The notes under the pieces: generated by a model
Told to the model about the DNA's origin: nothing
What the model saw: only the letters and a program-made list of their open reading frames with translations
The model's database searches: none
Shown here: positions 17,973-19,117 of the stretch, piece by piece
Layout of the letters: every line of letters starts with the position of its first letter
Position numbering within the stretch: position 1 is the first letter of the stretch
Translations under genes and position numbers: made by a program
Assembly (NCBI RefSeq): GCF_002854065.1
Contig: NZ_CP024147.1
DNA length: 64,000 nt
Strand: one strand, 5' to 3'
Source of the DNA: Escherichia coli
GTDB taxonomy: Bacteria > Pseudomonadota > Gammaproteobacteria > Enterobacterales > Enterobacteriaceae

Positions 17973-18048
17973 GGGTCGTTAGCTCAGTTGGTAGAGCAGT
18001 TGACTTTTAATCAATTGGTCGCAGGTTCGAATCCTGCACGACCCACCA
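17973..18048 (+). tRNA. lysT: tRNA-Lys (anticodon UUU)
   Basis: 76-nt gggtcgttagctcagttggtagagcagttgacttttaatcaattggtcgcaggttcgaatcctgcacgacccacca with encoded CCA. Confidence 0.97.
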
Positions 18049-18083
18049 CTAACCTAGTTAGTTGTAGTATCCAGCGTAGTATC

Positions 18084-18159
18084 GGGTGATTAGCTCAGCT
18101 GGGAGAGCACCTCCCTTACAAGGAGGGGGTCGGCGGTTCGATCCCGTCATCACCCACCA
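18084..18159 (+). tRNA. valT: tRNA-Val (anticodon UAC)
   Basis: 76-nt gggtgattagctcagctgggagagcacctcccttacaaggagggggtcggcggttcgatcccgtcatcacccacca. Confidence 0.97.
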
Positions 18160-18161
18160 CC

Positions 18162-18237
18162 GGGTCGTTAGCTCAGTTGGTAGAGCAGTTGACTTTTAAT
18201 CAATTGGTCGCAGGTTCGAATCCTGCACGACCCACCA
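18162..18237 (+). tRNA. lysW: tRNA-Lys (UUU)
   Basis: Identical copy of the lysT sequence. Confidence 0.97.
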
Positions 18238-18288
18238 CTAATTACGGTGGGTTCGGTGGAAGTAGTTTGTAGTATCCAGCGCAGTATC

Positions 18289-18364
18289 GGGTGATTAGCT
18301 CAGCTGGGAGAGCACCTCCCTTACAAGGAGGGGGTCGGCGGTTCGAACCCGTCATCACCCACCA
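18289..18364 (+). tRNA. valZ: tRNA-Val (UAC), T-loop variant
   Basis: Same as valT except gttcgaaccc instead of gttcgatccc in the T-loop. Confidence 0.95.
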
Positions 18365-18367
18365 CTC

Positions 18368-18443
18368 GGGTCGTTAGCTCAGTTGGTAGAGCAGTTGACT
18401 TTTAATCAATTGGTCGCAGGTTCGAATCCTGCACGACCCACCA
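18368..18443 (+). tRNA. lysY: tRNA-Lys (UUU)
   Basis: Identical copy. Confidence 0.97.
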
Positions 18444-18495
18444 GTTTTAACATCAAACTCAGATGTTAAGCGTGAAGGATAACGTTGCGCCAGCA

Positions 18496-18541
18496 ACGGC
18501 CCGTAGGGCGAGCGAAGCGAGTCATCCTGCACGACCCACCA
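18496..18541 (+). repeat. tRNA-Lys 3'-end remnant repeat, copy 1
   Basis: acggcccgtagggcgagcgaagcgagtc followed by atcctgcacgacccacca, the exact last 18 nt of tRNA-Lys; no 5' half. Confidence 0.7.
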
Positions 18542-18589
18542 ATCTTAAAGATTGGCCCCGAGTAAAAATCTTTCAGGTAACACCCGTAT

Positions 18590-18665
18590 GGGTCGTTAGC
18601 TCAGTTGGTAGAGCAGTTGACTTTTAATCAATTGGTCGCAGGTTCGAATCCTGCACGACCCACCA
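18590..18665 (+). tRNA. lysZ: tRNA-Lys (UUU)
   Basis: Identical copy. Confidence 0.97.
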
Positions 18666-18698
18666 TCCTGAATGATTAAAGCAGCATAATCCCGCAAG

Positions 18699-18774
18699 GG
18701 GTCGTTAGCTCAGTTGGTAGAGCAGTTGACTTTTAATCAATTGGTCGCAGGTTCGAATCCTGCACGACCCACCA
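18699..18774 (+). tRNA. lysQ: tRNA-Lys (UUU)
   Basis: Identical copy; last gene of the array. Confidence 0.97.
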
Positions 18775-18778
18775 ATGT

Positions 18779-18805
18779 AAAAAAGCGCCCTAAAGGCGCT
18801 TTTTT
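18779..18805 (+). terminator. rho-independent terminator of the tRNA operon
   Basis: aaaagcgcc-ctaa-aggcgc hairpin followed by tttttt. Confidence 0.75.
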
Positions 18806-18884
18806 GCTATCTGCGATACTCAAAGATTCGAACCTGCAGCAGGTTTGAGTTGAGCGTAGCGAAACAACGGAGCCGCTCGCGGCG

Positions 18885-18930
18885 ACGGCCCGAAGGGCGA
18901 GCGAAGCGAGTCATCCTGCACGACCCACCA
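18885..18930 (+). repeat. tRNA-Lys 3'-end remnant repeat, copy 2
   Basis: acggcccgaagggcgagcgaagcgagtc plus atcctgcacgacccacca; differs from copy 1 by one nt. Confidence 0.7.
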
Positions 18931-18934
18931 ATGT

Positions 18935-18961
18935 AAAAAAGCGCCCTAAAGGCGCTTTTTT
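18935..18961 (+). terminator. second copy of the tRNA-operon terminator hairpin
   Basis: Same aaaaaagcgccctaaaggcgcttttttgctat sequence as at 18779..18805. Confidence 0.6.
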
Positions 18962-19117
18962 GCTATTCAGGCATCTCTCAATTTCAATTCTTGACCCTGA
19001 TGACATACTTCGCGCTTGCTGCGTAAACAACTTTACGTCGGAGGAATAAGACGCAAAGTGTGGCATTCGGCATCTCATACGTAATTCGAGTGACTTTTCC
19101 CCACCATTCGACTATCT

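Follow-up and report, generated by a model that had tools for sequence, protein, structure and literature searches.

The lysT tRNA array of Escherichia coli includes two tRNA-Val(UAC) genes, valT and valZ, and in the DNA studied here (a stretch of 64,000 nt, referred to as the window) these two copies differ by one nucleotide of the T-loop. The locus raises the question whether the deviating base of valZ is real or an artefact and, if it is real, how it was acquired and whether it influences the function of the tRNA. The difference is best explained by a real T-to-A change of nucleotide 59 in valZ, which is inherited, neutral or nearly so, and marks a lineage; the probability of this reading is estimated at about 85%.

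The lysT array of the window

Seven tRNA genes in the order of Lys-Val-Lys-Val-Lys-Lys-Lys were detected by ARAGORN on the plus strand at 17973-18774 and all seven were confirmed by Rfam. The operon begins with lysT, a tRNA-Lys(UUU) gene at 17973..18048, followed by valT (tRNA-Val(UAC), 18084..18159), lysW (tRNA-Lys(UUU), 18162..18237), valZ (tRNA-Val(UAC), 18289..18364), lysY (tRNA-Lys(UUU), 18368..18443) and lysZ (tRNA-Lys(UUU), 18590..18665), and is closed by lysQ (tRNA-Lys(UUU), 18699..18774). The spacers from lysT to lysQ are 35, 2, 51, 3, 146, and 33 nt long. The 2-nt spacer between valT and lysW is CC and the 3-nt spacer between valZ and lysY is CTC, both matching the published array (CC and CUC; PMC4176162). 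As determined from annotated relatives, the tRNA block is located between pal-cpoB (upstream) and nadA (downstream). The array order, the cpoB/nadA placement and the spacers that follow the Val genes (CC and CTC) are as expected and are shared with the lysT array of K-12. The initially assigned names valT and valZ and the coordinates given with them are correct. The RNA of the lysT array is a single polycistronic transcript, which is cut apart by RNase P (PMC4176162), and the lysT unit is essential as a whole, as it contains five of the six Lys genes (PMC11480407).

Two RtT-like repeat units accompany the tRNA genes on the plus strand. The first, at 18444..18541, occupies the lysY-lysZ spacer and terminates in a Lys 3' end copy (ATCCTGCACGACCCACCA, 18524-18541); the corresponding Rfam RF00391 match spans 18375-18541 with 54.4 bits. 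The second unit, located 3' of lysQ at 18805..18930, scored 47.1 bits with RF00391, is annotated as 'RtT sRNA' in relatives and has the second Lys 3' end copy (18913-18930) at its end. Both units reach the Rfam gathering score. These repeats are the context of the tRNA operon and not the variant itself. A terminator-like hairpin, GCGCC-CTAAA-GGCGC (18785-18799), together with a T run, occupies 18785..18805 of the plus strand, 3' of lysQ. The hairpin and the T run are exactly duplicated at 18941-18961, beyond the RtT-like unit, and the 156-nt unit carrying the duplicated terminator is missing from about half of the fetched genomes. In the scan for promoter and terminator consensus sequences, no sigma-70 site was found and neither copy of the lysQ terminator was listed.

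The single nucleotide difference between valT and valZ

In the alignment of valT and valZ, 75 of the 76 columns are identical and the sole mismatch is in column 59, with T at 18142 in valT (gttcgaTccc) and A at 18347 in valZ (gttcgaAccc). That two paralogous genes are nearly the same is in itself to be expected. As both genes are 76 nt long without insertions, the gene position equals the standard tRNA numbering and the site is nucleotide 59. This nucleotide lies within the seven-base T-loop (54-60) and is unpaired in the cloverleaf. The two initial statements, that a single T-loop base separates the genes and that this base is a variable one, were thus borne out. The invariant residues of the T-loop are 54, 55, 56, and 58, and nucleotide 59 is outside that set. 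Nucleotide 59 is also absent from the list of T-loop invariants in PMC7912444, where it is described, along with the bulged pyrimidine 60, as forming D-loop contacts.

The expected tRNA elements are preserved in valZ: T54, T55, C56, A58, the G53-C61 pair, and the encoded CCA end (GGCGG-TTCGAAC-CCGTC ... ACCA) are retained and only nucleotide 59 is altered. Both genes were called tRNA-Val (tac) by ARAGORN. The Rfam RF00005 scores of valZ (A59) and valT (U59) were 66.7 and 65.9 bits, respectively, with a gathering score of 29; the A59 gene therefore scored 0.8 bit higher. The neighbouring tRNA-Lys genes also have A59, and the substitution lengthens the stretch shared by valZ and the Lys T-loop from 7 to 8 nt. 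In addition, direct reading of the plus strand revealed that A59 gives rise to a perfect 10-nt palindrome, GGTTCGAACC, at 18340..18349, the valT counterpart of which is the imperfect GGTTCGATCC.

The comparison with the reference genes, which had been proposed as a check, gave 76/76 identical positions for valT, a K-12-type sequence equal to the genes of K-12 HMS174, and 75/76 for valZ. The five Val(UAC) genes of K-12 are identical (PMC4176162; PMC11480407) and all have U59, whereas valZ of the window has A59. A literature search found no study of the nucleotide-59 polymorphism of valZ or valT.

Occurrence of valZ-A59 in complete E. coli genomes

The window was compared with 5,426 complete E. 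coli genomes by megablast with a 55-nt query (18320-18374) having the variant A at its position 28, so that any 28-nt seed must include the A. The query matched 164 genomes, at a single place in each. The band of at least 99% identity held 26 matches, two of which were not listed at full length; the 24 genomes counted match the whole 55-nt query, which covers the valZ-specific CTC spacer and the beginning of lysY, without a single difference. They originate from human, chicken, pig, cattle, mink and wastewater sources on several continents and make up approximately 0.4% of the complete E. coli genomes. As the collection is clonally biased, these and the following genome counts do not represent independent events. 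The nearest genome, that of strain 100416 (human stool, Gambia), is 100.0% identical to the window over 24 kb and has the same A. A comparison of 2,455 nt revealed a single mismatch between strain 100416 and the window, at position 19010; the genome of strain 100416 is thus a separate sequence and not the window's own.

It could be argued that the true base of valZ is T, as in valT and K-12, and that the A was introduced by sequencing or assembly. Only one base is concerned, the gene is a repeated one, repeats are prone to mis-polishing, and a probable 1-nt indel artefact was detected at the equivalent place of tRNA-Ala in six genomes. Against this, the same A with the same flanks is present in 24 complete genomes from unrelated projects, among them that of the nearly identical but distinct strain 100416. 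Furthermore, the CC/CTC spacer is located 18 nt downstream of the polymorphic site and a unique spacer sequence 58 nt upstream of it, and with distinguishing spacers this close, ordinary reads place the base in the correct gene copy. An error is therefore highly improbable and, as far as assemblies alone allow, it was rejected, the base being common to many independent assemblies. From the two options offered by the first-pass annotation, a sequencing error or a strain marker, the marker is supported by the 24 genomes and the error is not.

In the course of the search, a 149,809-bp record of strain 100181 (NZ_JBRERE010000002.1), which had been counted as a plasmid, was found to contain the chromosomal lysT array with valZ-A59. 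This record is probably a chromosome fragment mislabelled as a plasmid.

Distribution of nucleotide-59 alleles in E. coli

A59 was found in valT about five times more commonly than in valZ, i.e. in about 137 genomes (approximately 2.5% of complete E. coli). This number corresponds to the 95-99% identity band of 1-nt-gap alignments, the inspected members of which (SE11, AR_452, STEC719, A2) all had A in valT, followed by CC, and T in valZ. Escherichia sp. E1V33 also carried valT-A59. The substitution and the operon are the same in the SE11-type E. coli and E1V33 as in the window, but the affected gene is the other Val gene, the flanking haplotype in the inspected genomes is different, and the allele is commoner. 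No genome among the 5,426 had A59 in both valT and valZ.

The total number of genomes with A59 was 163, as one of the 164 matches was excluded. This sole false positive was EcPF14 (NZ_CP054230.1), in which a chimeric gene consists of Val 1-58 and Lys 59-76 fused at the shared GGTTCGA. The chimera originates from a 111-nt tandem duplication and is labelled tRNA-Val by PGAP. Its acceptor and T stems are mismatched, and on this ground the gene is probably non-functional.

Control queries against the same 5,426 genomes detected G59 in 5 genomes (1 in the valZ context, 2 in the valT context, and 2 in other Val genes). No Val(UAC) gene of the 5,426 genomes had C59, the product of a T-to-C transition. 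U59 was retained in more than 96% of the E. coli genomes.

Haplotype backgrounds of valZ-A59

The layouts, spacers and flanks of the array were compared in 13 valZ-A59 genomes, 5 valT-A59 arrays (four of E. coli and that of E1V33), 3 closely related genomes in which valT and valZ both have T, and K-12. The layout of the window, Lys-35-ValT-2-Lys-51-ValA-3-Lys-146-Lys-33-Lys, was common to EC1515, SCU-316, O78 strain 3, ABW_A19, XJ34, CUWW06, NCTC10444, and KV7. Other valZ-A59 genomes had different arrays. DSM 103246 is devoid of valT-lysW, so that five tRNA genes are left and the A59 gene is the only Val gene of the array, and in LH50-c one Lys gene is missing together with the 146-nt spacer. 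In 1919D62, where valT has U59, the array is a mosaic with long spacers of 135 and 149 nt. Its left part, from cpoB through the lysW-valZ spacer and including the T at position -1 before valT, is of the SE11 type, and its right part, from lysY to the region upstream of nadA, is of the SCU-316 type. Such a pattern suggests that a recombination junction lies within valZ or right beside it.

Among the valZ-A59 genomes two haplotypes of the lysY-lysZ spacer, differing at four sites, and two upstream cpoB haplotypes were distinguished. PS10-3, XH990, and O145:H28 RM12581 have the layout and the flanks of the window, yet T in valZ. The inspected valT-A and valZ-A genomes had different flanking haplotypes, except for the mosaic 1919D62. 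The presence of valZ-A59 in several layouts and haplotypes points to an old segregating allele which has been spread by descent and recombination. The simplest reading of these sequences is that valZ-A59 is old enough to have been transferred onto different backgrounds by homologous recombination.

The array as such is variable, since RtT-like units of approximately 100 nt and entire tRNA genes are gained and lost across strains. The window is devoid of three such units, which are present in K-12 after lysT, lysW, and lysZ (at 18049-18083, 18238-18288, and 18666-18698 of the window, respectively), and the corresponding spacers are 35, 51, and 33 nt in the window versus 135, 149, and 132 nt in K-12. 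Every unit of this kind has the 18-nt copy of the Lys 3' end at its end. The copies are direct repeats flanking the units, which would permit their deletion, and the differences in spacer length between strains can be attributed to the gain and loss of RtT units.

A59 in other Enterobacterales

A scan with the 35-nt 3' half containing A59 was performed on one genome per species (100,044 species); 50 loci were returned and their full-length genes were compared. In the Val-Val-Val-Lys (valU-type) clusters of many Citrobacter species, K. oxytoca, K. michiganensis, K. spallanzanii, K. indica, Raoultella, Kluyvera, Pluralibacter, Enterobacter spp., Lonsdalea, and Enterobacillus, the leading gene was the exact 76-nt E. 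coli Val(UAC) sequence with T59A as the only change. In every such cluster the later Val genes had the U59 sequence of E. coli, and the A-then-U-U pattern was kept in at least eight genera. In Pantoea and Tatumella, all three Val genes had A59 along with the additional differences C16T, G20T and sometimes C27T. Copies with G59 were also present in P. agglomerans and Mixta.

In Citrobacter and the other taxa, the valU-valX-valY-lysV-type cluster thus begins with a gene that is identical over 76 nt to valZ of the window, A59 included, and stands beside U59 copies. However, this gene belongs to another operon in other genera, where A59 is apparently fixed, whereas A59 of E. coli is a minority polymorphism. 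The occurrence of the identical sequence as a normal gene in other genera indicates that the A59 isodecoder is a working tRNA. Judged from these genes, A59 Val(UAC) is an established tRNA and mixed U59/A59 arrays are common in the order. By analogy, the valZ-A59 tRNA of the window would be expressed, charged with valine and used in translation.

Enterobacterales-type Val(UAC) genes were also encountered on contigs labelled as Chryseobacterium sp. 18061, an Acidimicrobiales MAG and a Holosporaceae MAG. The Chryseobacterium sp. 18061 contig had a full Val-Val-Val-Lys cluster with the pattern of Citrobacter sp. 18056 from the same study. The Val genes on these Chryseobacterium, Acidimicrobiales and Holosporaceae contigs are probably due to contamination or mis-binning.

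Predicted folding and the possible effect on function

The opposite of neutrality would be that A59 is functionally distinct and kept by selection, either by suppressing a non-cloverleaf fold or by altering the stacking of nucleotide 59 on G15-C48 and thereby the stability or modification of the tRNA. The predicted folding agrees with such a role. With ViennaRNA, the minimum-energy fold of the A59 transcript was the cloverleaf, while the U59 transcript adopted a structure other than the cloverleaf, with G43-G49 paired to C56-C62 and G46-U59 among the pairs. The T-arm helix probabilities were 0.013 for U59, 0.59 for A59, 0.09 for G59 and about 0 for C59, as predicted by nearest-neighbour models, which leave out tertiary contacts and modifications. 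With C59, 43-49 and 56-62 would in the model pair without a mismatch, as an alternative helix of 7 bp. For the alternative fold containing a G-A pair, the computed energy has no meaning and was disregarded. The order of the T-arm probabilities of the variants matches their counts in E. coli (A > G > C), and the conservation of the A-then-U-then-U pattern of the valU-type cluster across genera also agrees with selection.

However, U59 is the form of the great majority of E. coli and of K-12 and so clearly folds in vivo, and A59 is present in only about 3% of the genomes with no sign of a sweep. The omission of tertiary contacts and modifications from the folding models also weighs against the predicted misfold. 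Selection for a distinct function is therefore considered unlikely. A more elaborate form of this explanation, based on the folding model, would be that Enterobacterales keep two Val(UAC) isodecoders in which nucleotide 59 governs the choice between the cloverleaf and a helix of the G-rich 43-49 strand with residues 56-62 of the T-loop and T-stem. A59 would then aid the folding of the unmodified transcript, C59 would be lethal or strongly deleterious, and those E. coli lineages in which valT or valZ has A59 would have regained the state that is fixed in valU elsewhere. If nucleotide 59 governed folding in this way, the U59/A59 pair would not be neutral; we regard this scenario as unlikely.

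The preferred explanation remains that of a nearly neutral, inherited substitution. The T-to-A change would have arisen in valZ at T-loop nucleotide 59, outside the invariant residues and unpaired. In folding, charging by ValRS and decoding, the resulting tRNA is presumably no different from the U59 form. The allele may then have been passed on vertically and, through homologous recombination of short pieces of the tRNA array, have entered other backgrounds as well. Nucleotide 59 is not known to contribute to ValRS identity or to be contacted by EF-Tu, RNase P or the enzymes that modify the T-loop, and the function is expected to be unchanged. With five copies of Val(UAC) in K-12, one variant copy would also be well buffered. 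The function and fitness of the A59 and U59 forms are therefore likely to be equal. The initial suggestion that the change is probably neutral gains support from the fact that, to judge by the genomes compared, many related genera have the exact A59 sequence as a regular tRNA-Val gene. There is weak evidence against strict neutrality, namely the long conservation of the A/U/U pattern, the retention of U59 in more than 96% of the genomes, the absence of C59 although the two transversion products are present, and the dissimilar folding predicted for the four bases.

The valZ-A59 gene is thus ordinary: it is already represented in public genomes, and its sequence is that of a natural tRNA known before. 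The base can be used as a marker and is no assembly error; otherwise it matters little. It does indicate that the 'identical copies' of tRNA genes in K-12 differ elsewhere in the species, and that Val(UAC) quantification based on probes or mapping meets two species of tRNA in A59 strains. The A/U/U pattern, the missing C59, and the turnover of RtT units and tRNA genes are mildly useful for studying the concerted evolution of bacterial tRNA arrays.

Possible origin of A59 by copying

Instead of a simple point mutation, A59 may have arisen or moved by copying. Copying may have taken one of three routes: gene conversion between valT and valZ, a short patch for which the T-loop of an adjacent tRNA-Lys gene (GGTTCGAAT) was the template, or a template switch perfecting the quasi-palindrome GGTTCGATCC to GGTTCGAACC. 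The same T-to-A change is found in both paralogous genes in different lineages, and the number of genomes with A59 (163) is far above those with G59 (5) and C59 (0). However, the excess of A59 is accounted for by the clonal inheritance of two or three events. Altogether, an origin by copying is rather unlikely, and the evidence on each route is as follows.

Gene conversion would be facilitated by valT-lysW and valZ-lysY, which are nearly identical over about 180 nt. However, the expected intermediate with A59 in both genes was found in none of the genomes, and valT-A and valZ-A have different flanks in the inspected genomes other than 1919D62. Conversion is thus not needed to explain the distribution of the two classes.

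The Lys-templated patch is in agreement with the 8 nt, instead of 7, that valZ shares with the Lys T-loop, and the EcPF14 chimera with its 111-nt tandem duplication shows that Val/Lys exchange at the shared GGTTCGA does occur. This was the only Val/Lys exchange found, and it swaps the whole 3' part of the gene; it is a duplication chimera and not a point variant, and the patch was not adopted as the source of A59.

The template switch would account for the perfect 10-nt palindrome. The tRNA-Ala(UGC) genes, which contain the same GGTTCGATCC, served as a control, and in the 5,426 genomes they had no T59A but only 1-nt insertions, in six genomes. A strong template-switch hotspot is therefore not supported, and a point mutation followed by descent and recombination remains the favoured origin of valZ-A59.

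The six E. coli genomes with the 1-nt T-loop insertion in tRNA-Ala(UGC) have GGTTCGAATCCC in place of the usual GGTTCGATCCC, and three of them belong to one veterinary series. Homopolymer errors could account for these insertions, as could a true variant of a lineage.
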